A stretch of DNA of 42,659 nt from a phage. The stretch is taken from sequence record PZ386954.1. One strand, written 5' to 3'. The notes under the pieces are model-generated. The model was not told the DNA's origin and did not search any database. It saw only the letters and a list, made by a program, of their open reading frames with translations. Made by a program: the position numbers and the translations under genes. Positions 3,999 through 42,636 of this stretch are shown here, piece after piece. Each line of letters opens with the position of its first letter. The first letter of the stretch is position 1.

Positions 3999-4194
3999 GG
4001 GTATCCGAAAGCTGAGGCAATGAACAGGCCGTGGGTGCAATACCCCGGCTTGAAAATTGACTATTTGTACGTGCCCCTCCCTCGACCCAAATGACCGCGC
4101 GTACCCCCATGACGTGTGCGCGGTTTAGCCTCGCGACGTGCGCGGTATTGTCTCGCGTGCGCTGCGCGGCGCGTCGAAAGGATTGCCTGCGTTC

Positions 4195-4600
4195 GGTATA
4201 GCTCGTGCGTGTCGCGTTTCATCGTCTGCCGTGTGGCGTGCTGTGCGCTGTCCTGCTGGCTGTGCTGTGTGCCTGCTGTGTGGGCTATCGGTGGCGGTGT
4301 GGTGCTGTCCTGTGGGGACGCTCTGCGCTGGCTGTGCGGTGCTGTGCGCTGCGCGTGGTCGGGCGGGTATCTGTCTCTTTTCGTGGCGCGGCGTGGTGCT
4401 GTGTGGTGGCGGTGGTGGCGGTGGTGCTGTCCTGTCTGCTGGTCTACTGTCTGCGCCTCCAGCTCTGCGCGTCATGCTCTGCTCCTGTCTGTCACCTGTC
4501 CTACTGCCTTCACGTTCTGCCGTCTGTCAGTCCTACGGCCTGCCATCCGTCATCCGTTCGGCGCTCGCTTGTTTCGGCTGCGCCGCGCTCGCTCTGCGTA
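4195..4600 (+). repeat. non-coding, extremely A-depleted (G/T/C-only) tract with short degenerate repeats (GCTGTGCG, GGTGGCGGTGGTG, CTGTC); probable genome-terminus or terminal-repeat region
   Basis: by direct count only 4 A residues in 4201-4440; overlapping ORFs in all frames here are low-complexity composition artefacts. Confidence 0.7.
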
Positions 4601-4605
4601 TCTAG

Positions 4606-4634
4606 CGATACTATATCACTATAGACACTTTCAT
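4606..4634 (+). promoter_or_regulatory. conserved element CGATACTATATCACTATAGACACTTTCAT; contains TCACTATAG identical to T7 promoter -8..+1; inverted near-identical copy at 25549-25580
   Basis: TCACTATAG at 4616-4624; about 130 bp upstream of the first sigma70 promoter, a T7 phiOL-like position. Confidence 0.45.
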
Positions 4635-4760
4635 TTACTTATTGATTTATAAGGATTTATTTACTGTATTCAATCGGTATTCTATCCAGTGTTAGGATTA
4701 TCTAATCAAACTTTAATCCTAATGATTACAGTAACTTATCACTTTTCTTGAAAATAATAC

Positions 4761-4789
4761 TTGCAAAGGTATTCGGTATTTGCTGTAAT
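4761..4789 (+). promoter_or_regulatory. sigma70-type early promoter P1 (TTGCAA-N17-TGcTGTAAT)
   Basis: -35 TTGCAA 4761-4766, 17-bp spacer, extended -10 TGc + TGTAAT 4784-4789, AT-rich upstream (AAAATAATAC). Confidence 0.7.
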
Positions 4790-4866
4790 TCATCTCGCCG
4801 GACAACACAGCGTCAACGTGTTGGACGGTGTAGGACGGTAACACTGCTCTTTAACAATCTGGTGTG

Positions 4867-4895
4867 TTGACAAGGCAAGCTCACTATGCTGTAAT
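4867..4895 (+). promoter_or_regulatory. sigma70-type early promoter P2 (TTGACA-N17-TGcTGTAAT)
   Basis: -35 TTGACA 4867-4872, 17-bp spacer, TGcTGTAAT ending 4895. Confidence 0.75.
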
Positions 4896-5004
4896 GCTTC
4901 CACGTCAGCCAGACAAGCCAAATAGTGATGGATAAACACGTTAACACCCACGCAGGCTAACTGGTACGGTTTAATTAACTCTGAACGGGCGCTGATTAAA
5001 TCGG

Positions 5005-5033
5005 TTGACAGGATGAAACGAGTATGCTGTAAT
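5005..5033 (+). promoter_or_regulatory. sigma70-type early promoter P3 (TTGACA-N17-TGcTGTAAT)
   Basis: -35 TTGACA 5005-5010, 17-bp spacer, TGTAAT 5028-5033. Confidence 0.75.
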
Positions 5034-5085
5034 ACACACCAGATTGACAGGGCAGCAAGCCAGTCAGTCAGAAGTAAAAAGGTAG

Positions 5086-5114
5086 TTGACAAGCTGAATA
5101 CGATGTGATGTAAT
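5086..5114 (+). promoter_or_regulatory. sigma70-type early promoter P4 (TTGACA-N17-TGaTGTAAT)
   Basis: -35 TTGACA 5086-5091, 17-bp spacer, TGTAAT 5109-5114. Confidence 0.75.
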
Positions 5115-5570
5115 CAGCACCGAGTTGAAAGGATGGAAAGCATCCTGCTCTGAGTGAACGCAAACTGGCCGCGTAGTGTCACGGCTCACTGGGTATCCGC
5201 CGCAGGTTGGAACTGGGTGAGGCATCGCCGAAAGGCAACGGTATCGCAACAATGCTAACGCCGTAGGGGTAGCGCCTGATGCAAGGTAACGGAGAAGCGC
5301 GATAGACGCAGCGCAGTATCAGCACAATACCAAACGTCTTATAAGGCGCGGAGTGAAGCGGGTAGGTAGGCAAGCTGGTAACGGTGAGCCGGACTGCTGG
5401 AGGACTCCTGAGAGTGGATGCAGACAATATCCACGGCGCGAAATGGGCGGGGCGATTTTTCAGGGTAGTGAATCCGACAAGCCAATCAATGCCAACGAGT
5501 GCAGACTGTACGGCGCGTCACAATGGGTTCACTATCCACCTGAAAATAGCCAACAACTGGAGAAATTAAT

Positions 5571-5960
5571 ATGTACCGTATCTATGCAAGCGCATATCGT
5601 CAGGGCAACGCTGAGTCAGTCAATCTGGCGCTTCATTGCAAGGCACTGCGAACGGTGCAGGACATGTTCGGAGTGGTTCCGGTCACACTGACAGGCAAGT
5701 TCGACAATGCGTATGAGTTAAGCATGGTCTTCCCTGTCGATGGAATCTACGAAATCCGACAGGCTGTTAAGCTGTTTTGTAAAGCCTTCGAACAGGACTG
5801 CATCATGGTAGTGACCAAAGACGACGATGCAATCTTCATGGACTCACCGTATCCGGGTAAGCCTGCTGGCAAGCTGGTCAGCAAGACTAACGAGGAAATG
5901 GAAGCCGGGCAGCATACCGCTTGGACTTACGATGGTGAGCAATTTTGGGTAGTGGAGTAA
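5571..5960 (+). CDS. first early protein (129 aa), function unknown
   Basis: ATG with GGAG Shine-Dalgarno; first ORF downstream of the early promoter cluster. Confidence 0.65.
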   Translation: MYRIYASAYRQGNAESVNLALHCKALRTVQDMFGVVPVTLTGKFDNAYELSMVFPVDGIYEIRQAVKLFCKAFEQDCIMVVTKDDDAIFMDSPYPGKPAGKLVSKTNEEMEAGQHTAWTYDGEQFWVVE

Positions 5961-12195: not shown

Positions 12196-12624
12196 GTGCT
12201 TGAGTGTATTGACCACGGCCAGAAGGGTAATGCTAATGGCTACGGATATACCAGCCGCTATGTAGATGGCAAGCGGGTAGTGGTTGGGCTGCACCGCGCA
12301 GCTTACTGCGATGCGCATGGCCTGCCTTACTCTGCAATCAAGGGCAAGGTGGTCATGCACCGTTGTGATAACCCACGCTGTATCAACCCTGACCATCTGG
12401 TGTTGGGTACACAGGGAGACAACATGCAGGACATGATGGGCAAACGCCGACACCACAAGGGTGAGGCAACACCGCACGCCAAGCTGACGAGTGAGCAGGT
12501 CGTGCTTATCCGTAAGCTGTACGCTGAGGGCGGCGTAACCCAACGTGAACTTGCGTTGGAGTTCGGTGTATCCCAAACGAATATCAGTGCCATCGTAAGG
12601 GGAGAAACTTTCAGTGTTGGATAA
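12196..12624 (+). CDS. HNH homing endonuclease with C-terminal helix-turn-helix
   Basis: GTG start; HRCDNPRCINPDHLVLGTQGDN HNH motif; C-terminal QRELALEFGVSQTNISAIVRGE; inserted between the zinc-finger gene and the helicase. Confidence 0.8.
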   Translation: MLECIDHGQKGNANGYGYTSRYVDGKRVVVGLHRAAYCDAHGLPYSAIKGKVVMHRCDNPRCINPDHLVLGTQGDNMQDMMGKRRHHKGEATPHAKLTSEQVVLIRKLYAEGGVTQRELALEFGVSQTNISAIVRGETFSVG

Positions 12625-34135: not shown

Positions 34136-36832
34136 ATGGCTACTATGCGTGACCAGCGTGGCGCTAACCTTAATGCTGCGCAGCAGGGATTACCAAGTGT
34201 GCAGCAGGCGCAGACTCCGTTTAGTCTCGCAGGCCGCGATACTCGCATCGACACGTTTCCTACCGAGTCCATTCAACGCGTACTGAACATGGCCAGCGCA
34301 CTTGCTGGCCGTGTCACTGAGCGTGTGAACGAGGAAGAATACCTCAAGGGGGCTAACGCCGCCGCGAGTGGCAAGGCTGTCGAGGATTTGGATTCGAACT
34401 GGCTTACCGCTCAGTTCCAGAAAGCTGGTTACAACGACCAGTACAAACGAATGGAAATGGCGAAGGTCGCCTCAGACATCTCGGCTAACATGCCGCAGTA
34501 TGCGAAGATGGCACCCGACGAGTTCTTGAAGGTGGTGGACGAGAAGACCACTGGCCTGTTCGAGAACACTGATGGTATGACGCTGAACGGGCGTAAGTCA
34601 CTGCTGGAGAACCAGCTCACGTTCAGCAACACCCTTATCCGTACGCAGGCTGCCCAGCATGGTAAGTATCTGGTTGAGCAGCGTGCGGCGATGTACAACA
34701 CGCAGGGTAACACTCTAGTTACTCTGGCGGCTCAGGCCAAGGCCACTGGCGATGGCGGCGCGTACGCTAACGCTACGGCAGCAACCATGGCATGGGCCAA
34801 GTCTATTCTGGCAGACGACAAGCTGCCACTGGAGACTCGCCGGACGCAGGTGACTTCCATGATGGGGCTGATGCTCCAGCAGGATTTGCGTACCCCGGTC
34901 GAGACTGCTGTGAACTCCGGGCTATTCAACGAGCTGCCTGCCGACGATTTGGCCAAGCTGCAAGGTCAGATTCGTGAATCCAAATCTCGTACTGAGGTTC
35001 AGGATAACATGGGTCTGCTGGCGCAGAAGGGTCAACTTGATGCGCGTCAGGCAGTATTCGGTGACGTTACGCCGGAACAGTACACGCAGACGCTCCAGCA
35101 GATGGTGGACAATAAGCTGATTAGCGCTGGTGGTTTCAGCTCTGCTATCGAGTCCTTCTACAAGGATTACGCCAAGCAAGCCAAGGCCAGCCAGCTCGGT
35201 CAGGCTTACGCCACCGGGAACCAGACGTACATGCTCCAGCAGGGCGCGAGTGAGCAGGATGGTGCTGACGCATTCATCAAGGCTCGCATGAAGCAACCGG
35301 GCGCGACGGCAAGTTCCGTGGCGTTCGACCTGCTGCAAGTGGGTGCGCAGACTGGCTTCCCTTCTGCGTACAAGTCTGCTGCCAAGTTGATTGAACCATC
35401 CCTGTCGAACTTCGGCACCGTGGATGAAATGAACCCTGACGCTGCCCGTACCGTAACCGGGCTGATTGACCGTGTAACCGTGGCCGAGAATCAGGGTGAC
35501 AAGACTGCATGGACTAAGCTCCTGTCCGGTCTGTCAGAAGAAAACCAAGAGAAGATGGTGTACATGCGCGAGCAGATTAAGGCTGGCCGCACCATCGACC
35601 AAGCTGGTCAGGGTTACATCAAGCAGCAGCAGGACTACGCTGGCTTGACCCCGGCACAGAAATCTCAAATCCTCACGCAGCGTCAATCTGACGTTAACTC
35701 TGTGGTGAATGGGCTGGAGGCTCAGGGCTTCCTCTCTCGCACTTGGCAGGGTCTGGCTGGTCTGTTCTCAGATACTCAGCAGAACCTGTTCCAAGCACGC
35801 GTCGCATCTGGTGACATTACTGCCGCGCAGGAAATGTCGGAGGTGTCTGCCGCGTACCGCGAGGAGCTGCAAGCTGTAGTCCTCAAGAACCCGAACGTGA
35901 CGAAGGATGGTATGGAAGCACTCGCATCTGCGAAGCTGGCCAACCGTGTCCTGCGCGTCGGTGAAACCACATTCAGCCCCGGCTCTGTGCTTATCGCACC
36001 GAGAGGCCAAACTGTTCAGTCTATGCTCGGCTTGCCTGCTGACGTAGCCCCCGACCGTATCGGTCGCGCTATCGCCGCACTTGACCAGACCAAGGCACCA
36101 GAAGGCTTCGAGTCGTCCTACTCGTTTATGCCAGATGGCTCTCTGAACGTTCAGTTCTTCAACAAGCAAGGTGACGTTTCCCCGAACTCGGTACGCATTC
36201 TGCCGCAGCTCGTGCAGGAACGCATCCGTGAAGACGACCGTGCAGCAGCCACTGCCAACAACGAAGTGTATGGCGACGGGAAACTCTTTGTTGATAAGAC
36301 CAGTAACGTGGGTATCCGCGTGAATGGCGTTAATACTGCGGGGGTAGACGAGCAGCGTATGCTTGTTGCCCGTGGCAAACTGATTGACTTCGAAGGTATC
36401 CGCAGCACCACCTACCGCGACAGCACTGGCGTACAGACTAACGGTGTCGGTATCTCCGACCGTAGCCCGTACTTTGCCCAAGGCCAAGCGTCTGGTATGA
36501 AAGGCGGTACTGAGTGGTCGCCGCGAACTATCCACGATACGTTCGTGCAACACACCAACATGGTAGCCCGGCAGATGCCCGGCACTGCTGCTGCACTGGG
36601 GTGGAGTCGTGATAACGATGCCCAGTTCCAGTTCATGATGCAGATGGGTTATCAGGCAGGTTCAAGCTGGTATCGTACCGATGGTGCGTACAGCAAACTG
36701 GCTGATGCAATCCGTGTTGGCGACCAAGAGAAAGCTGTGCAGGCTCTGGCTGCGACCCCGGCTTATAAGCTGTCGCAGGACGAGCGTAAGCAGTATTACG
36801 TCCAAACTCTACTCGCAGGTATGCAGGAATGA
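34136..36832 (+). CDS. internal virion protein B (T7 gp15-like)
   Basis: 898 aa; synteny. Confidence 0.75.
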   Translation: MATMRDQRGANLNAAQQGLPSVQQAQTPFSLAGRDTRIDTFPTESIQRVLNMASALAGRVTERVNEEEYLKGANAAASGKAVEDLDSNWLTAQFQKAGYNDQYKRMEMAKVASDISANMPQYAKMAPDEFLKVVDEKTTGLFENTDGMTLNGRKSLLENQLTFSNTLIRTQAAQHGKYLVEQRAAMYNTQGNTLVTLAAQAKATGDGGAYANATAATMAWAKSILADDKLPLETRRTQVTSMMGLMLQQDLRTPVETAVNSGLFNELPADDLAKLQGQIRESKSRTEVQDNMGLLAQKGQLDARQAVFGDVTPEQYTQTLQQMVDNKLISAGGFSSAIESFYKDYAKQAKASQLGQAYATGNQTYMLQQGASEQDGADAFIKARMKQPGATASSVAFDLLQVGAQTGFPSAYKSAAKLIEPSLSNFGTVDEMNPDAARTVTGLIDRVTVAENQGDKTAWTKLLSGLSEENQEKMVYMREQIKAGRTIDQAGQGYIKQQQDYAGLTPAQKSQILTQRQSDVNSVVNGLEAQGFLSRTWQGLAGLFSDTQQNLFQARVASGDITAAQEMSEVSAAYREELQAVVLKNPNVTKDGMEALASAKLANRVLRVGETTFSPGSVLIAPRGQTVQSMLGLPADVAPDRIGRAIAALDQTKAPEGFESSYSFMPDGSLNVQFFNKQGDVSPNSVRILPQLVQERIREDDRAAATANNEVYGDGKLFVDKTSNVGIRVNGVNTAGVDEQRMLVARGKLIDFEGIRSTTYRDSTGVQTNGVGISDRSPYFAQGQASGMKGGTEWSPRTIHDTFVQHTNMVARQMPGTAAALGWSRDNDAQFQFMMQMGYQAGSSWYRTDGAYSKLADAIRVGDQEKAVQALAATPAYKLSQDERKQYYVQTLLAGMQE

Positions 36833-39800
36833 TTATCACACAAGAATCGCTCGACAAGTTCATGGCTCCCAAGCAGGGGGCCAACGCTCCCTCGCTGGTT
36901 ATTCCAGCTCCCGTAAAGACTGCTGACCTCAGCACTCCACTGCAAGATGCCACTCGTCAGGGTGCCGTCGAGCAGTTCGACAAGATGCAGGAACTGGAAG
37001 CAACTCCGATGGCCACGGCGTTGAGTGCTTCTGTGAAGAACTGGGACACCACCCAGCTCTTTGATGCCGCGTTCAACAAGCCCACCTTCCAAGCTGACCC
37101 GGACTTCAAGCCCAACGAGGCATTGCAGAACGTACAGTTCCCGGTGGGTGCAGATGACCGGACGTTCCTGTTCAAATCCAAATCCATGGACGAGTTCAAC
37201 TGGCGTACCCAGCAGCTCCAAGAGATGCGAGAACGTACCCAGTTGGCTCACACTGCGCCAGTGATGAACGCAGTGCTGCAATTCGCTGACCCGCTGTACC
37301 TTGCTACTGACCTGCTCTCGATGGGAGCAGGCACTGCCCTGAAACTTGGTCGCCTTGGAACCGCTGCCGTAGGCGCGGCGTCCACTGCTACGCTGATGAA
37401 CACCATCGGTAGCGAGGCTCGCCCAGTATCTCAGAACGAGATTATCTTTGCGGCTGCCCTGCACGGGGCGGCCACCACTGCATTCTATCGCCCCGCCGCT
37501 GCGCCAGCCCGTCGCCTTGATGAGCTGTCGCCAGAGGAATTTGCGGCTGAGATGCAGCGCCGTAACGGTATTGACCCGAACAACCCGCCGCAGTTTGACC
37601 CGAACAACGCCATGTCTCCGCTGGCAATGTCCCTCGGTGTCGGCCCTCGCGGTGCCACTGTAGTTGACGAAGTACCGGAATCCATTCGGGCTGCGGCTCA
37701 GCGTGGACTCGACCTCGCACGCCGTGGTGAGCAGACCAACCCTAAGCGTCCATTCCTTGAGTGGTCACTGTTCAAGTCGTTCAGTCAGCATTCTGAGGAA
37801 TCCAGTGCGTTGGCCGGGCGACTGCTGGACGACCCACTGAACCCGAACATGACCTCTGCTGCTGCAATCCAGCGCGAGACTCAGGCTCGCTTCGGTGTGC
37901 TGCTGAACCAGTATGAAGACACCCTGCGCCATGCCCTGACCACTGATGGCTGGAGTAACATCCGGCGCTTCCGTGACCCGGTTGGCTATCGCCGGGCGCA
38001 GCAGGAGTTCGAAGCTGCTGTTCGTCTTGAGCTGGACAAGCGCATGATTGACAACAACTTCCGTGGCGCTAACCCGAGTGTGGCCGCTGCCGCCGACCGA
38101 CTGGGCGAATACTCTCGCGCCGTGGGCCGGGAGCTGGAACGCAAGGGGATGGTTGAGCCGGGCTTCGTGGAGAAGAACCCGTACTACTACCCTCGCCGGA
38201 TGAACGTGACCAAGGTTGAGCAGGCTGAGCAGTTGCTCGGCAAGAAGCCATTCATGAAGCAGATGACGACTGCTGTGCAGCGCGGTATCGGTACTGACCG
38301 TCCGACTGCCAACGTCATTGCCCATGCTATGGTGGAGCGTGCCCGCCGCAAAGGTTACGGTATCGACAACTCCGGTACGATTATCAACAAGGAGGGCCGC
38401 GATGAGCTGCTCGAAATCATTGAGAACTCGAAAGGACTCGACGAGGCTGCCAAGGCCCGTGCTTCCGCACTCCTTCGTGAATCTGGCTCGGACGCTGGCC
38501 GACCGTCGATGCTTAAGAGCCGTATCAACATCGACATGATGCACCAGCTCGGCCCTAACTTGCAGGTGCGTGACCTGTTCGATGACAGCATCACCAGTAT
38601 GATGGACAGCTACAACCGCCGCATTACTGGGCGACTGGCTCTGCATGAGGCTGGACTGGGTACTGACGCCGAACGCGCTGCTGCTCGTGAGGCTCTGGCC
38701 AAATCCATCAAGGATGGTACGGCTCGTCGTCAGGCGCTGGGGCAGTATGACAACATCATGGCTTATTACCAAGGTGCGCCAGTTGGTGAGGAAATGCCGC
38801 AGTTCATGCGTCAGCTCTCTGCACTGACTCAGGCTACTGGTCTGGCTGCATCTGGTCTGTGGCAGTTGGTGGAATACGGCACGATGATGCAACGTTTCGG
38901 GGCAGTCAATACGTTTCGCGCCATGATGCGTACAATTCCCGAAGCACGCGCACTATTTAAGCAAATGAGGGTGTCTACTAAGGAAGGTCGTCAGTTGGCA
39001 CTTGATGCCGAGGAAGCTCTGACTGCGGCGGTTGCGAGTGATATTCGTATGCGCCCAATCATGCAGCACTATGAAGATATGTTCTCTGCGGATAAGTCAC
39101 CGTGGGTTATGCGTCTTGAGCACGCCCGTGATGCTACCATGTTCATCAACATGCAGAAATACATCCACTTCCACCAGACCCGTACCAACGCTGCGCTCGT
39201 GATGCAGACTCTGCGTAAGGCTGCCGAAGGTGACGCCAAGGCTATTGCCGCGATGAAAACCTATGGTGCCAATGAGCAGCTTCTGAACGACATTCGCAAG
39301 CAGGTCGGGCAGCATGGCACCAAGCCAGACGCTTGGGACGAGGGCGTGTTCAACCGCTCCCGTATTGTCATGATGAATGCCATGGATGACGCCATTGTTC
39401 GCGCCCGTGTGGGTGAGCTGCCTGCGTTTGCAGAGTTCAGCACGCTCGGTAAGTTCCTGTTTACGTTCCGTCGATTCGTAGCGGCTACGCACAACAAGAC
39501 ACTGGTGGGTACGTGGAATCGTGAAGGTGCTCGCGGAATGGCTACGCTCATGGCGTATCAGTATCCGCTGGCGATGATGGCCACCGCAGCCAACAACGTG
39601 ATTTCTGGCAAGGCTTTCTCCGACCCGGAAACCATGGCACCAAATAAGCTGGCTGGGCAGGCACTGAACTATCTTGGTGCTATCGGCTTTGCCTCCGAGT
39701 TCACTGGTGTCCTGACCGGGCAGCAGCGTAGCTTCGGTGCGCCGGGCCTGTTGTTCCTCGACCGTGCCTACGGCGTGGCAGGTGCAGCTACCAATGCTGC

Positions 39801-39939
39801 TGGCGGTGTGTTGACTGGGGATGCTGACCAAGCCATCTCCGGTGCTCGCAAGGCGGCGGGTAACGTCATCCAAGCAATCCCACTCATCTCCATTGTGCCG
39901 GGCGTCCGAGCACTCAACGAAGCAGTTAAGGGTGAATAA
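36829..39939 (+). CDS. internal virion protein C (T7 gp16-like)
   Basis: 1036 aa; overlapping stop/start with neighbours; synteny. Confidence 0.75.
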   Translation: MIITQESLDKFMAPKQGANAPSLVIPAPVKTADLSTPLQDATRQGAVEQFDKMQELEATPMATALSASVKNWDTTQLFDAAFNKPTFQADPDFKPNEALQNVQFPVGADDRTFLFKSKSMDEFNWRTQQLQEMRERTQLAHTAPVMNAVLQFADPLYLATDLLSMGAGTALKLGRLGTAAVGAASTATLMNTIGSEARPVSQNEIIFAAALHGAATTAFYRPAAAPARRLDELSPEEFAAEMQRRNGIDPNNPPQFDPNNAMSPLAMSLGVGPRGATVVDEVPESIRAAAQRGLDLARRGEQTNPKRPFLEWSLFKSFSQHSEESSALAGRLLDDPLNPNMTSAAAIQRETQARFGVLLNQYEDTLRHALTTDGWSNIRRFRDPVGYRRAQQEFEAAVRLELDKRMIDNNFRGANPSVAAAADRLGEYSRAVGRELERKGMVEPGFVEKNPYYYPRRMNVTKVEQAEQLLGKKPFMKQMTTAVQRGIGTDRPTANVIAHAMVERARRKGYGIDNSGTIINKEGRDELLEIIENSKGLDEAAKARASALLRESGSDAGRPSMLKSRINIDMMHQLGPNLQVRDLFDDSITSMMDSYNRRITGRLALHEAGLGTDAERAAAREALAKSIKDGTARRQALGQYDNIMAYYQGAPVGEEMPQFMRQLSALTQATGLAASGLWQLVEYGTMMQRFGAVNTFRAMMRTIPEARALFKQMRVSTKEGRQLALDAEEALTAAVASDIRMRPIMQHYEDMFSADKSPWVMRLEHARDATMFINMQKYIHFHQTRTNAALVMQTLRKAAEGDAKAIAAMKTYGANEQLLNDIRKQVGQHGTKPDAWDEGVFNRSRIVMMNAMDDAIVRARVGELPAFAEFSTLGKFLFTFRRFVAATHNKTLVGTWNREGARGMATLMAYQYPLAMMATAANNVISGKAFSDPETMAPNKLAGQALNYLGAIGFASEFTGVLTGQQRSFGAPGLLFLDRAYGVAGAATNAAGGVLTGDADQAISGARKAAGNVIQAIPLISIVPGVRALNEAVKGE

Positions 39940-42320
39940 TGGCGAACAGCTATAATACTTACGTGGCGAACGGTTCACAGACCGCATTCCTCGTCACGTT
40001 CGAGCAGCGCGTGTTCACTGAGATTCAGGTGTACCTCAACTCCGAACTCCAGACGAGCGGATACACCTACAACTCTGTGACCAAACAGATTGTCTTTGAC
40101 ACCGCCCCGCCAATCGGGGTGATTGTCCGACTCCAACGCTACACCTCCGATATTCTGCTTAACAAGTTCGGTCAGGACGCTGCCTTCACGGGCAGCAACC
40201 TCGACGAGAACTTCGAGCAGATTCTGTTTAAGGCTGAGGAAACTCAGGAAGCATGGCTCGCGCCGCTTGACCGTGCCGTCCGTGTTCCGAACTCCGAAGT
40301 CTCCATCAACGCTTTACCGAACGTCGCTGGTCGCCGCAACAAAGCACTGGGCTTTGATAGTAATGGCCAGCCGTTCATGATTCCTCTGGTTGATATTCCT
40401 GACTCCGCGCTGGCTATTGCACTCGCAATGAATGACGGCGGTAAATGGATTGGTACACTGGGCGGCGGTACGTTCCTCGACCGTCAGGATACTGTGTGCC
40501 TGTCAGAGTTCACCAACAACACTGGTTACGCGTCAGTTAGCGCTGCTGTGCAGGCTTGCTTTGACTATGCCGCAGCCAACAATAAAGTAGTGGATGCTCG
40601 CGGCTGGGTAGGCACGCTAAACGCCAACGTCACGATGACAAATATTGAGGTTGTCGGCGGTACGTGGAAAGGCACATCTGACGTGTTTATCGTTAACTCG
40701 CTGTTCCGCAACTTCGAGATTAATAACCTGCGCCTGCGTCCATATGGCGGCGATGTTCGTATCCGCTATGGCTTATTTGATGGTAAGCCCACGCTGAGTA
40801 AAGTGGCGAGCATTATGCTCCAAGCTATCCCAGCCGCTGGCACCATTGAGGTCACAGATTGCGAGTTCCGAAATGGTCTATATGGTATCTTGCAGCAAGG
40901 CACTGGCGAGGTGATGACGCGTGGCCTGTTTCGTAACCTGTCGTTCTATGACATGGGTGGTGATGGGATTGAGCTGAACGTTGTGCAGAAACACTACGAT
41001 GATGGCTGTCTAATTGAGAACATCGTTCTTGAGAACATAGACAGTACAGGTCAGGCACCTATCAATAACTCCAACTGGGGTATCGGTATTGGTGTGGCTG
41101 GTAGTTCTCCATATGGTTTGGATACTCCAGACAGCTATTATGCCAAGAACATTACCATTCGCAACGTCAAGGCACGACGCTGCCGTCAGGTTGTTCACTT
41201 TGAGCAGGTTCGTGATTCGCTTATCGAGAACATCGACGGCGACCCCGACCAGAACGTGTCTAACGGCTCCGGCCTGACTATGGCCACTGTGCTGTGCTAC
41301 GGTGCGCGTCGCGTTACCATCAACGGTGTACGCGGTGAACCAGTGGTCACAGAGGGTACTGACCCGCATAGCATCCGCATTGTGATGCTGGAGTGGGGTA
41401 CTAACGCCGGGATTGGCGCACGCGGGCCATGTCAACACATGACTGTGCGCAACGTGTCATCCCGTAATGGGCGCTTCTATGCTGGCGTAGGCTGTCAGGC
41501 TGTAGGGCTAGACAATACAGCAACGTTCGAGAACATCGACTGCTATAACTTCCGAGTGTTCGGCGTAGCGCGTGAACTTAATCTAGCCAACATCACCTGC
41601 ACAGTGTTTGACTGTATCGGCGATGATTCTGCTGGCGGTACTTCGTCCAACGGGTATCTGGCTGTCGGTCGCACAACGCTCAATATGACCAATGTTAACG
41701 CACTGTCTGAGGACTTGGTAGCCAATCAGGGCTGGAGCCGCTGTGCATACTCGTATGTGTCCAGCGTGGCATCCAACGTGTACGCACGTCCGTATCCCCG
41801 CCAAGGGATTGATGGTGGCATTGGTGTACCTGTGCGGCCCAGCAACCGTGTGTACGTGATGCCGGATGCTGCTGATGTGAATATCACAGACTGGGATGGT
41901 ACTCAGTTCCCTGCCGGACGAGAGTTCGTAGAGGGTGACTTGATTATGCGTACTGATGGTAAGTTCTTTACGGTAACTCGCAGTGGTGCCTATATTCCAG
42001 CTATTGCCGAATATCGGGTCAAAGCTGCGGCAGCAGGTCAGACGTACCTCGCCAGCAATTACCCTATGGATGGTAACAAAGGGTCAATGGTTTGGATTTA
42101 CAGATACATGCTGACGCCCGGCACCCATATCAATATTCCGGGAGCTGGTGCAGGCGGCGGAGTATTACATACCACCATTGCTCGCGGCCCGTACCGTACG
42201 GACGTGAACAACCCTACCAGTGAGATTCGCGTCGGCATTAGTGACCCTATCGTCACAGCTATCCCGGCAGGTACTCAGCTATCCGCCACGTACCCAATCT
42301 CGTTCCGTACACCAACATAA
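39939..42320 (+). CDS. tail fibre / tailspike with T7 gp17-like N-terminal anchor and parallel beta-helix-like C-terminal region (possible polysaccharide depolymerase)
   Basis: 793 aa; N-terminal MANSYNTYVANGSQTAFLVTF...; C-terminal recurring N-I-x-I-x-N-V rungs (ENIVLENID, NITIRNVKA, MTVRNVSS, FENIDCYNF). Confidence 0.75.
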   Translation: MANSYNTYVANGSQTAFLVTFEQRVFTEIQVYLNSELQTSGYTYNSVTKQIVFDTAPPIGVIVRLQRYTSDILLNKFGQDAAFTGSNLDENFEQILFKAEETQEAWLAPLDRAVRVPNSEVSINALPNVAGRRNKALGFDSNGQPFMIPLVDIPDSALAIALAMNDGGKWIGTLGGGTFLDRQDTVCLSEFTNNTGYASVSAAVQACFDYAAANNKVVDARGWVGTLNANVTMTNIEVVGGTWKGTSDVFIVNSLFRNFEINNLRLRPYGGDVRIRYGLFDGKPTLSKVASIMLQAIPAAGTIEVTDCEFRNGLYGILQQGTGEVMTRGLFRNLSFYDMGGDGIELNVVQKHYDDGCLIENIVLENIDSTGQAPINNSNWGIGIGVAGSSPYGLDTPDSYYAKNITIRNVKARRCRQVVHFEQVRDSLIENIDGDPDQNVSNGSGLTMATVLCYGARRVTINGVRGEPVVTEGTDPHSIRIVMLEWGTNAGIGARGPCQHMTVRNVSSRNGRFYAGVGCQAVGLDNTATFENIDCYNFRVFGVARELNLANITCTVFDCIGDDSAGGTSSNGYLAVGRTTLNMTNVNALSEDLVANQGWSRCAYSYVSSVASNVYARPYPRQGIDGGIGVPVRPSNRVYVMPDAADVNITDWDGTQFPAGREFVEGDLIMRTDGKFFTVTRSGAYIPAIAEYRVKAAAAGQTYLASNYPMDGNKGSMVWIYRYMLTPGTHINIPGAGAGGGVLHTTIARGPYRTDVNNPTSEIRVGISDPIVTAIPAGTQLSATYPISFRTPT

Positions 42321-42330
42321 GGAGAACCAC

Positions 42331-42636
42331 ATGGCATCCGTGAATAAGCAGCTCGACGGGCTGCACCGGATGCTGGTGGAGTATCTGTCCGACCGCTTGG
42401 CCGACGCTCGTAGGAAAGATGAACATGGTAATATCATCGAACCTATGGCGGCGGCTGAGCTGTCCGTACTTCGCCAGTTCCTGAAAGACAACGGTATTCA
42501 GGCTGATAAAGACCACGCAGATGACCTGCTGGCGCTGCAAGAGCAACTGAATAACGAAAAGACCGAGGCAGGTCGTAAGGATATTATGACCGCTGCCATT
42601 AACTCAATCGCAGAAGATAGCGGGATGATGCACTAA
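42331..42636 (+). CDS. terminase small subunit (DNA maturase A)
   Basis: 101 aa; GGAGAA SD; immediately upstream of the terminase large subunit across the window junction. Confidence 0.7.
   Translation: MASVNKQLDGLHRMLVEYLSDRLADARRKDEHGNIIEPMAAAELSVLRQFLKDNGIQADKDHADDLLALQEQLNNEKTEAGRKDIMTAAINSIAEDSGMMH

Follow-up and report, generated by a model that had tools for sequence, protein, structure and literature searches.

The gene at positions 39,939 to 42,320 of the window (the whole stretch of 42,659 nucleotides analysed here, sequence record PZ386954.1) is very probably that of a Bonnellvirus-type podophage tailspike, in which a T7 gp17-type anchor precedes a beta-helix that cleaves colanic acid, and whose Lidtsur-type head was acquired by recombination. 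The most likely role of the spike is to digest the slime layer of colanic acid on enterobacteria, thereby opening the way to the cell surface.

Genomic setting of the tailspike gene

The genome, complete and circularly permuted, is that of a T7-like coliphage of the genus Bonnellvirus (Autographiviridae), and the spike gene lies in it between two neighbours on the same strand:

36829..39939, plus strand: internal virion (ejection) protein of 1036 aa, upstream neighbour (PHROG 342, E=8e-168; synteny with Lidtsur and aldrigsur)
39939..42320, plus strand: putative tailspike (colanidase) gene (PHROG 6117, E=1.5e-226; Lidtsur gp47, 93% amino acid identity)
42331..42636, plus strand: terminase small subunit of 101 aa, downstream neighbour (PHROG 891, E=3e-19; synteny with Lidtsur and aldrigsur)

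The reading frame, whose limits were already correct in the preliminary description of this DNA, comprises 793 codons plus stop. Its ATG at 39939 shares one base with the TAA of the preceding gene (TAATG) and has an AAGGGTG Shine-Dalgarno-like sequence on its 5' side, and its own TAA at 42318-42320 is directly followed by the AAGGAG ribosome-binding site of the terminase small subunit. The gene order (tube, nozzle, gp14-like, gp15-like, gp16-like, spike, TerS, TerL) places the spike after the internal virion proteins and before the terminase, as in the Autographiviridae structural module. A second tailspike in the genome was ruled out, every other large ORF being otherwise assigned, and the protein is therefore the sole receptor-binding candidate. 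Scans around the gene returned promoters (4 found against 3.8 expected) and terminators (4 against 4.2) at chance level. The dN/dS values, 0.036-0.043 for the whole gene and 0.018-0.028 for the beta-helix, where purifying selection is strongest, indicate that the gene is functional.

Modular architecture and mosaic origin of the head

The protein is divided into the following parts, the first breakpoint of the mosaic falling close to the start of the beta-helix:

39939..40418, plus strand: N-terminal virion anchor of the T7 gp17 N-terminal domain type, aa 1 to ~160 (PF03906; profile match to 7BOZ/7EY9)
40581..41798, plus strand: predicted right-handed parallel beta-helix body, aa ~215-620, about a dozen rungs (AlphaFold2 and DSSP; Foldseek; motif enrichment)
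40600..40700, plus strand: 5' recombination breakpoint, ~aa 225-250 (sliding identity; megablast coverage pattern; segment identities)
41799..42317, plus strand: C-terminal domain of mixed beta structure, aa 621-793 (homology to the C-terminal region of gp150; AlphaFold2 model)

The T7 gp17-like anchor that had been proposed from the sequence is real. On the whole protein PF03906 matched aa 2-104 (E=3.1e-5) with 24.1 bits, slightly below the Pfam gathering threshold of 25.2, which the isolated aa 1-170 passed by a narrow margin (27.6 bits); the near-identical N-termini of the homologues P0002, P0004 and P0006 scored 25.5-26.5 bits, and the model matched 22 of 22 aligned homologous N-termini. 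Furthermore, a profile of 22 diverse N-termini recovered the T7 gp17 N-terminus in the solved T7 tail structures 7BOZ and 7EY9 (E=2e-17; positions 1-128 to 1-140 in the 7boz_a/7ey9 match), together with the podophage fibre N-termini 8vbx_R, 23sh_r and 8es4_G (E<=5.5e-24). Past the Pfam core the anchor continues into a conserved LRVP...LP..R...LGFD..G.P extension. A homologue search with the N-terminal 165 aa gave no match, and the exhaustive search of representatives used instead found the anchor to be common to 1291 representative clusters, nearly always in N-terminal position. By homology, this domain would dock the spike, presumably a homotrimer, on the short tail at its adaptor/nozzle junction.

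The AlphaFold2 monomer model, with pLDDT above 90 across most of aa 200-790, predicts the right-handed beta-helix that the preliminary description had anticipated and superposes on the crystal structure of Phi92 gp150 (6E0V), the best Foldseek match (6e0v_A; E=6.8e-39, target-normalised TM 0.85, 658 aligned columns); the tailspikes of HK620, Sf6 and CBA120 and those of the Klebsiella depolymerase kind rank next. The same description had read a repeated N-I-x-I-x-N-V into this region; a rung signature does recur, but the heptad as worded cannot be called a repeat because its literal form is found once (NITIRNV, aa 404-410), I/V/L degeneracy adding a second copy (NIVLENI, aa 361-367). The shorter signature that takes its place, [R/E]-N-[I/L/V], occurs seven times (aa 332, 360, 365, 408, 430, 504 and 531) against 1.24 +/- 1.07 in residue shuffles, of which 0.02% reached seven, and the looser [R/E/T/A]-N-[I/L/V/F] counts 13 copies against 3.9 +/- 1.9 expected. 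All seven of the former and 12 of the 13 latter lie on strands predicted for the beta-helix (aa 215-620).

The Lidtsur-type head was placed as a cassette, by recombination, onto an aldrigsur/altidsur-like genome and N-terminal anchor. The genome backbone is ~97% identical to aldrigsur and altidsur and ~79-80% to Lidtsur, and the spike is of the rare Lidtsur type from about residue 230 onwards, up to its stop codon. On the 5' side of the breakpoint the sequence tracks aldrigsur (78-91% nucleotide identity inside the gene, higher in the upstream gene), whereas on the 3' side it tracks Lidtsur (77-87%) and identity to aldrigsur falls to 43-69%; the 3' breakpoint falls at the tailspike stop codon, ~42320. 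In Bonnellvirus-like phages a single conserved T7-type anchor carries five or more head types, with heads 46-65% and anchors 77-97% identical to each other, and the Lidtsur-type head shares 46-57% identity with the four other types on this anchor.

These relationships are well illustrated by the closest counterparts. Gp47 of Escherichia phage Lidtsur (YP_009821645.1, 'putative tailspike colanidase') has the same 793 aa and aligns without gaps at 93% amino acid identity, rising to 97% in the beta-helix, with gene position and the genus Bonnellvirus also shared. It differs in its gene, only 82.6% identical at the nucleotide level (dS ~1.2), and in its N-terminal 105 aa, which are 86% identical because the anchor described here belongs to the aldrigsur/NST1 lineage. 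The spikes of NST1 (ADI49571.1), J8-65 and aldrigsur/glasur (the latter annotated as 'tailspike colanidase') have in common with our protein the architecture, anchor, family and invariant motifs, and NST1-type spikes are ~91% identical to it over aa 1-245; their head (aa 246-793) shows only ~50% identity (53% in the beta-helix), thus representing a different allelic type. The C-terminal domain, at ~45-46% identity to the NST1 type, is the region that diverges most between head types.

Colanidase family and candidate active site

Membership of the colanidase family is most evident in a central core and in three acidic residues of it:

40854..41333, plus strand: most conserved core, aa 306-465, shared with bacterial WcaM (NCBIfam WcaM models; BLASTP to E. 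coli K-12 WcaM; PF27800)
40962..40973, plus strand: codons of D342 and E345 (motif GDGIE), acidic residues that are candidates for catalysis or substrate binding (invariant in homologues)
41202..41204, plus strand: codon of E422 (motif HFE), the third of the invariant acidic residues and likewise a candidate for the active site (invariant in homologues)

The protein matches PHROG 6117, 'colanic acid degradation', over aa 91-791 (E=1.5e-226) and, in the PDB search, the sequence of Phi92 gp150 (6E0V) over aa 162-791 (E=9.5e-76); it is 64% identical overall to the colanic acid-degrading protein of NST1, and proteins 96% identical to it carry Pfam PF27800, 'WcaM'. This full-length homology to characterised colanic-acid hydrolases, together with the fold match to 6E0V, supports the earlier suggestion of a beta-helix polysaccharide depolymerase. 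The core contains ILQQG, GDGIELNV, NWGIGIG and RQVVHFE, so that the family motifs GDxIE-NV, NWGIGIG and RQxxHxE are all kept. Seven residues (D342, E345, N347, W380, Q417, H420 and E422) are invariant in 43 of 43 aligned homologues, and these residues, D342, E345 and E422 among them, are also retained in Phi92 gp150 and E. coli WcaM. Our search of the literature for the catalytic residues of the gp150/6E0V family and for WcaM function found nothing usable.

Phi92 gp150 (PDB 6E0V/6E0W) conserves GD(G/A)IELNV, NWGIGIG and H-x-E at ~30-38% identity, but it is a myovirus protein with another N-terminal attachment module and without the T7 gp17-type anchor; in related proteins the N-terminal module is the TSP1/Gp66-type PF18668. 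E. coli WcaM (b2043, in the colanic acid biosynthesis cluster) is related to the core, over aa 315-465, at 35% identity (BLASTP, E=7e-19) and shares D342, E345, N347, Q417, H420 and E422, although it is a bacterial protein of 464 aa lacking any virion anchor. The NCBIfam WcaM models match aa 306-463 (E=2e-20) with 72-73 bits against equivalog cutoffs of 795-808 bits (TIGR04004/NF007517); therefore, a domain is shared with WcaM, and orthology to it was rejected. The P22, Sf6 and HK620 endorhamnosidases, the CBA120 TSPs and the Klebsiella depolymerases have in common with the spike the right-handed parallel beta-helix, a modular N-terminal anchor and the general strategy of drilling through a surface glycan. 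Their likeness is at the level of fold only (8-12% identity, TM 0.2-0.38), with other substrates and active sites, and assignment to the P22/Sf6/HK620 endorhamnosidase family was discarded, as it was matched in fold alone (8-10% identity, TM 0.19-0.38) and the PDB search gave no sequence match to it.

Substrate, alternatives and significance

Among the relatives, J8-65 forms halos that expand and reduces high-molecular-weight colanic acid (PMC4179555), a paper which, with Firozi 2010 as cited there, also covers colanic-acid degradation by NST1-type relatives; our statements on NST1 rest on it and on GenBank naming. In colanic acid, gp150 is reported to attack the Glc-Fuc linkage by hydrolysis (PMC13450770, citing Xu et al. 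2025). By analogy with these characterised homologues, the predicted beta-helix would bind and endo-hydrolytically cleave colanic acid, the Rcs-induced exopolysaccharide common to E. coli, Enterobacter, Kosakonia, Cronobacter and their relatives, with D342 and E345 (GDGIE) and E422 (HFE) as the candidate active site. Cleavage would enable the virion to tunnel across the slime layer and reach the outer membrane, at which a secondary step would trigger DNA ejection, and free or virion-borne enzyme diffusing out of plaques would be expected to produce halos on mucoid lawns. One observation counts against this picture: the plaques of the bonnellvirus Kc261, whose spike is annotated as a colanidase, were small and had no halos in the conditions of that study (PMC8402661). 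The preliminary description had pointed to capsule or LPS as the target and to a capsulated enterobacterial host. A surface polysaccharide is upheld, but it is most likely the exopolysaccharide colanic acid (M antigen) and not a K capsule or LPS; neither is a capsulated host required, as E. coli K-12 MG1655, the strain on which the closest relatives were isolated, is devoid of K capsule and O antigen and able to make colanic acid (bioRxiv 10.64898/2026.04.02.716166).

A head that is ~50% identical to the NST1 type and ~30-38% to gp150 could differ in substrate fine-specificity, and 'colanidase-like' folds are also found in Klebsiella capsule depolymerases (DepoCatalog class 5; PMC13385381), so that the fold alone does not fix the substrate. 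It could thus be argued that the Lidtsur-type head, with the same fold and chemistry, has a polysaccharide substrate different from canonical E. coli colanic acid, for instance colanic acid with another pattern of acetylation or pyruvylation, a capsule resembling colanic acid such as Klebsiella K108, or an Enterobacter exopolysaccharide, in which case the exchange of head cassettes would amount to a host-range switch. The identity of 46-57% to the four other head types (for NST1, 53% in the beta-helix and 46% in the C-terminal domain), the occurrence of members of the 90% cluster in Enterobacter kobei and E. asburiae assemblies, and the resemblance of the K108 capsule to colanic acid, along with the colanidase-like domains of Klebsiella capsule depolymerases (PMC13385381), are all in line with this proposal. 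We nevertheless regard it as unlikely: Lidtsur was isolated on E. coli K-12 MG1655, as were NST1-type bonnellviruses (PMC7552041), and colanic acid is the only exopolysaccharide of such kind in this strain; the WcaM-like core and its invariant acidic residues are intact, and the far more distant gp150 (~30-38% identity) still acts on colanic acid.

The chemistry and the very existence of an enzymatic activity can be questioned as well. Glucuronic acid is present in colanic acid, and the weaker fold matches include beta-helix tailspike depolymerases and lyases (alginate lyases, RbmB), as would suit degradation by beta-elimination at this residue in place of hydrolysis; these lyase matches are nonetheless remote (TM 0.2-0.45, 8-14% identity) and hydrolysis of the Glc-Fuc backbone linkage is what has been reported for the homologue gp150 (PMC13450770, citing Xu 2025), which makes a lyase very improbable. 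Even harder to sustain is a spike that has lost its activity and whose beta-helix only binds a polysaccharide or another receptor such as the LPS core. At 37 C the production of colanic acid by K-12 hosts is low, and infection of MG1655 may therefore depend on another receptor; however, the spike keeps all family-invariant residues, D342, E345 and E422 included, and purifying selection is strongest precisely on the beta-helix core (dN/dS 0.018-0.028). Hydrolytic cleavage of colanic acid by the Lidtsur-type head is our favoured reading.

The tailspike is an ordinary, already-described kind of protein, which carries little weight for basic biology: colanidase tailspikes are known, structurally solved and biochemically characterised, and the Lidtsur-type allele had already been noted in phage Lidtsur. 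From an applied point of view, broad phage resistance commonly arises through mucoidy, i.e. the overproduction of colanic acid, and colanidase-bearing phages and enzymes consequently serve as 'donors' in cocktails and as a means of clearing DNA preparations of colanic acid. For the engineering of spike chimeras, the clean breakpoint at about codon 230-250 provides a usable junction. A diverged and evidently functional second head type on a well-studied backbone offers, in addition, a natural pair in which to map the determinants of substrate recognition. That the head types are enzymes tuned to different colanic-acid variants or colanic-acid-like capsules across enterobacterial genera, and not neutral variants, is a tentative and rather doubtful idea. 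If they do differ in substrate, the Lidtsur-type head on an aldrigsur backbone would represent a recent host-range or substrate switch.

Genome context of the spike gene

The window represents a complete Bonnellvirus (Autographiviridae) genome in circularly permuted form. Its first base is that of the ATG of the large terminase (TerL) gene, and it ends just past the small terminase (TerS) gene. The position of these two genes at opposite edges reflects the circular permutation, and record PZ386954.1 seems to have been re-oriented to begin at TerL and not at the physical ends. Over the core (10-34 kb) it is 96.8% and 96.4% identical to the Escherichia phages aldrigsur and altidsur, respectively, and only ~80% to Lidtsur. 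Gene order around the spike is canonical, i.e. tail tube A and B, three internal virion proteins, spike, TerS and TerL:

36829-39939: last internal virion protein (PHROG 342)
39939-42320 (+): spike, 793 codons
42331-42636: TerS (PHROG 891)
1-1737: TerL

The spike ATG shares one base with the TAA of the upstream gene (TAATG) and is preceded by a purine-rich AAGGGTG, while AAGGAG comes right after its own TAA (42318-42320), ahead of the TerS start codon ATG at 42331. Promoter and terminator scans of the spike region returned matches at chance level only, and no second receptor-binding candidate was found among the other window ORFs. Further features of the genome are:

4116-4441: non-coding, G+T-rich, with degenerate short direct repeats (GCTGTG/GGTGCTGTG-like)
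4760-5114: 30-nt element GTTGACA...TGCTGTAAT, four tandem copies spaced 81-138 nt
12196-12624 (+): small ORF, 142 aa
18592-19017 (+): paralogue of the former, 141 aa, 53% mutual identity

The G+T-rich repeats are the reason why AT skew is strongly negative (-0.26) in bin 4001-5000, and they lie near the physical genome end, judged by Lidtsur coordinates (Lidtsur position 1 = window 5571). Since the 30-nt element combines a near-consensus sigma-70 -35 box with an extended -10 box, its copies are probably early promoters of the phage for the host RNA polymerase. Both small ORFs look like homing-endonuclease genes because they carry HNH_3 (PF13392) and helix-turn-helix domains; one lies between primase and helicase, the other ahead of the exonuclease gene, and neither segment has a counterpart in the otherwise ~97-98% identical aldrigsur.

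Anchor and beta-helix body

The preliminary description had proposed a T7 gp17-like anchor, which our profile searches confirm. The T7 tail fibre N-terminal domain PF03906 matches aa 2-104 with 24.1 bits in the whole protein, just below the 25.2-bit cutoff, and with 27.6 bits in the isolated N-terminal 170 aa. A diverse 22-sequence anchor profile, all 22 members of which match PF03906, hits the gp17 N-terminus in T7 tail complexes of known structure (7BOZ/7EY9; E=2e-17), as well as the N-termini of other podophage fibres or spikes (8VBX gp47, 23SH gp9, 8ES4 Gp44, the phiAB6 tailspike and Klebsiella/Acinetobacter depolymerases). Among 1.84 billion representatives searched exhaustively with HMMER, 1291 clusters share this domain; in nearly all cases it occupies the very N-terminal end of the protein, whose length ranges from 133 to 2495 aa.

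The beta-helix predicted for the rest of the protein was likewise borne out by several concordant results. PHROG 6117 ('colanic acid degradation') covers aa 91-791 (E=1.5e-226), and a PDB sequence search retrieved gp150, the colanidase tailspike of myovirus Phi92 (6E0V/6E0W), over aa 162-791 (E=9.5e-76). The AlphaFold2 model, built on a 43-sequence alignment, has a mean pLDDT of 79, exceeding 90 for most of aa 200-790, and is all-beta from ~aa 215 to 620, with a C-terminal domain thereafter; pLDDT falls to below 50-68 at aa 1-176 because the alignment combined several anchor types. Foldseek against the PDB placed 6E0V first (E=6.8e-39; target-normalised TM 0.85), followed at fold level only (8-12% identity) by the HK620, Sf6, Pam1, CBA120 and Klebsiella depolymerase tailspikes and other right-handed beta-helix carbohydrate enzymes. 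On the other hand, the regularity of the N-I-x-I-x-N-V rungs had been overstated: the literal heptad occurs once (NITIRNV, aa 404-410), with one more I/V/L-degenerate copy at aa 361-367. A compositional beta-helix signature is nonetheless real, [R/E]-N-[I/L/V] being found seven times (aa 332, 360, 365, 408, 430, 504 and 531; 1.24 +/- 1.07 in residue shuffles) and the looser [R/E/T/A]-N-[I/L/V/F] 13 times (3.9 +/- 1.9), with 7/7 and 12/13 copies, respectively, in predicted beta-strands of the central domain.

Conserved core, substrate and mode of action

The suggested polysaccharide depolymerase can be specified further: by homology and predicted fold the spike is a colanidase tailspike which, judging from its homologues, would cleave colanic acid. 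Such tailspikes are an already known kind, with structure solved and biochemistry done. The nearest annotated proteins are bonnellvirus 'tailspike colanidases' and the 'colanic acid-degrading protein' of phage NST1 (ADI49571.1). The type bonnellvirus J8-65 came from a screen for colanic-acid degraders, and its spike is 87% identical to the characterised NST1 colanidase (PMC4179555). Gp150 is reported to cleave colanic acid hydrolytically at the beta-1,4 Glc-Fuc linkage (Xu et al. 2025, as cited in PMC13450770).

The most conserved part of the spike, aa 306-465, is homologous to WcaM (NCBIfam E=2e-20), encoded in the host's own colanic-acid cluster; the conserved core is 35% identical to E. coli K-12 WcaM (E=7e-19), and the common domain is Pfam PF27800 'WcaM'. 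D342, E345 and E422 are invariant in 43/43 aligned homologues and kept in gp150 and WcaM, and we propose them, by inference only, as candidate active-site residues; our literature search found no paper defining the catalytic residues of the colanidase family. The K-12 wcaM gene (4503-5897 of the sequence compared) shares the core encoded at window 40854-41333, including the three acidic residues, which suggests that WcaM may be a colanic-acid glycanase itself, or that the phage enzyme may have evolved from it. The spike gene is under strong purifying selection, dN/dS being 0.043 when compared with the metagenomic phage L008, 0.036 when compared with Lidtsur, and 0.018-0.028 for the beta-helix.

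On the domain architecture, predicted fold, family membership, conservation and selection established here, a mode of action can be projected from homologues: spike trimers would use the gp17-like domain to dock at the adaptor/nozzle, colanic acid would be bound and endo-hydrolysed by the beta-helix, cleavage would give the virion access to the outer membrane, and enzyme set free would produce halos on mucoid lawns. A shift of substrate to a colanic-acid variant or colanic-acid-like capsule is plausible, given that head types (the head being the part after the anchor) differ by ~50% and that Klebsiella capsule depolymerases contain colanidase-like domains (PMC13385381), but is disfavoured by the isolation of Lidtsur and NST1-type phages all on K-12 MG1655. 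Lyase chemistry, or a spike that only binds, is disfavoured too, since hydrolase activity is reported for gp150 and the core of the window spike is intact and strongly constrained.

Modularity and exchange of colanidase heads

The colanidase head family occurs in 255 phage records of many taxa, with almost exclusively enterobacterial hosts. Two records, named as Pseudomonas phage PsgM04F and Campylobacter phage C3, also contain near-identical Phapecoctavirus/phi92-like colanidase genes; neither host is known as a producer of colanic acid, and these host labels or isolation histories therefore look doubtful. PF27800 heads are carried on three unrelated anchors, namely PF03906, the P22 head-binding PF09008 and TSP1/Gp66 PF18668, the latter with or without PF26208. 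This distribution over podo-, myo- and jumbo phages is a classic example of how modular receptor-binding proteins are. At least five head types, with 46-65% mutual identity, sit on the T7-type anchor, while the N-terminal 245 aa of these spikes are 77-97% identical.

The exact spike protein is absent from a collection of 15 billion sequences. Thirteen proteins make up its 90% cluster, among them Lidtsur gp47 (YP_009821645.1) and 'hypothetical proteins' from Enterobacter kobei and E. asburiae assemblies on ~42.7-kb contigs. Four Lidtsur-type proteins retrieved (P0049, P0050, P0052 and P0053) were deposited under these two species as 'hypothetical protein', on contigs of up to 42.7 kb. Such contigs are probably whole bonnellvirus genomes within bacterial assemblies, hinting at Enterobacter as natural host of the Lidtsur-type head.

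At the DNA level the whole spike gene is matched by Lidtsur only (82.6%); in all other bonnellviruses, aldrigsur and altidsur among them despite their near identity elsewhere, only its first 730-744 nt match. By three-way sliding identity among window, aldrigsur and Lidtsur, the 5' breakpoint falls at ~40,600-40,700 (codons 225-250), and the 3' one coincides with the stop codon. The enclosed segment is 43-69% identical to aldrigsur vs 77-87% to Lidtsur, and directly 3' of the stop codon aldrigsur is back at 97-99%. The protein segments follow:

Protein identity of the window spike to three homologues
aa 1-105: Lidtsur 86%, NST1 92%, aldrigsur 90%
aa 106-245: Lidtsur 90%, NST1 91%, aldrigsur 90%
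aa 246-620 (beta-helix): Lidtsur 97%, NST1 53%, aldrigsur 53%
aa 621-793 (C-terminal domain): Lidtsur 93%, NST1 46%, aldrigsur 45%

Of the phages in the 90% cluster of the spike, the metagenomic L008 is ~88% identical to the window over its full length, with no breakpoint. The gene is of recombinant origin: cassette recombination brought a Lidtsur-type head into an aldrigsur-like genome. The spike adds a new sequence to the Lidtsur-type allele, which had been noted before, and the window places this version on another backbone.
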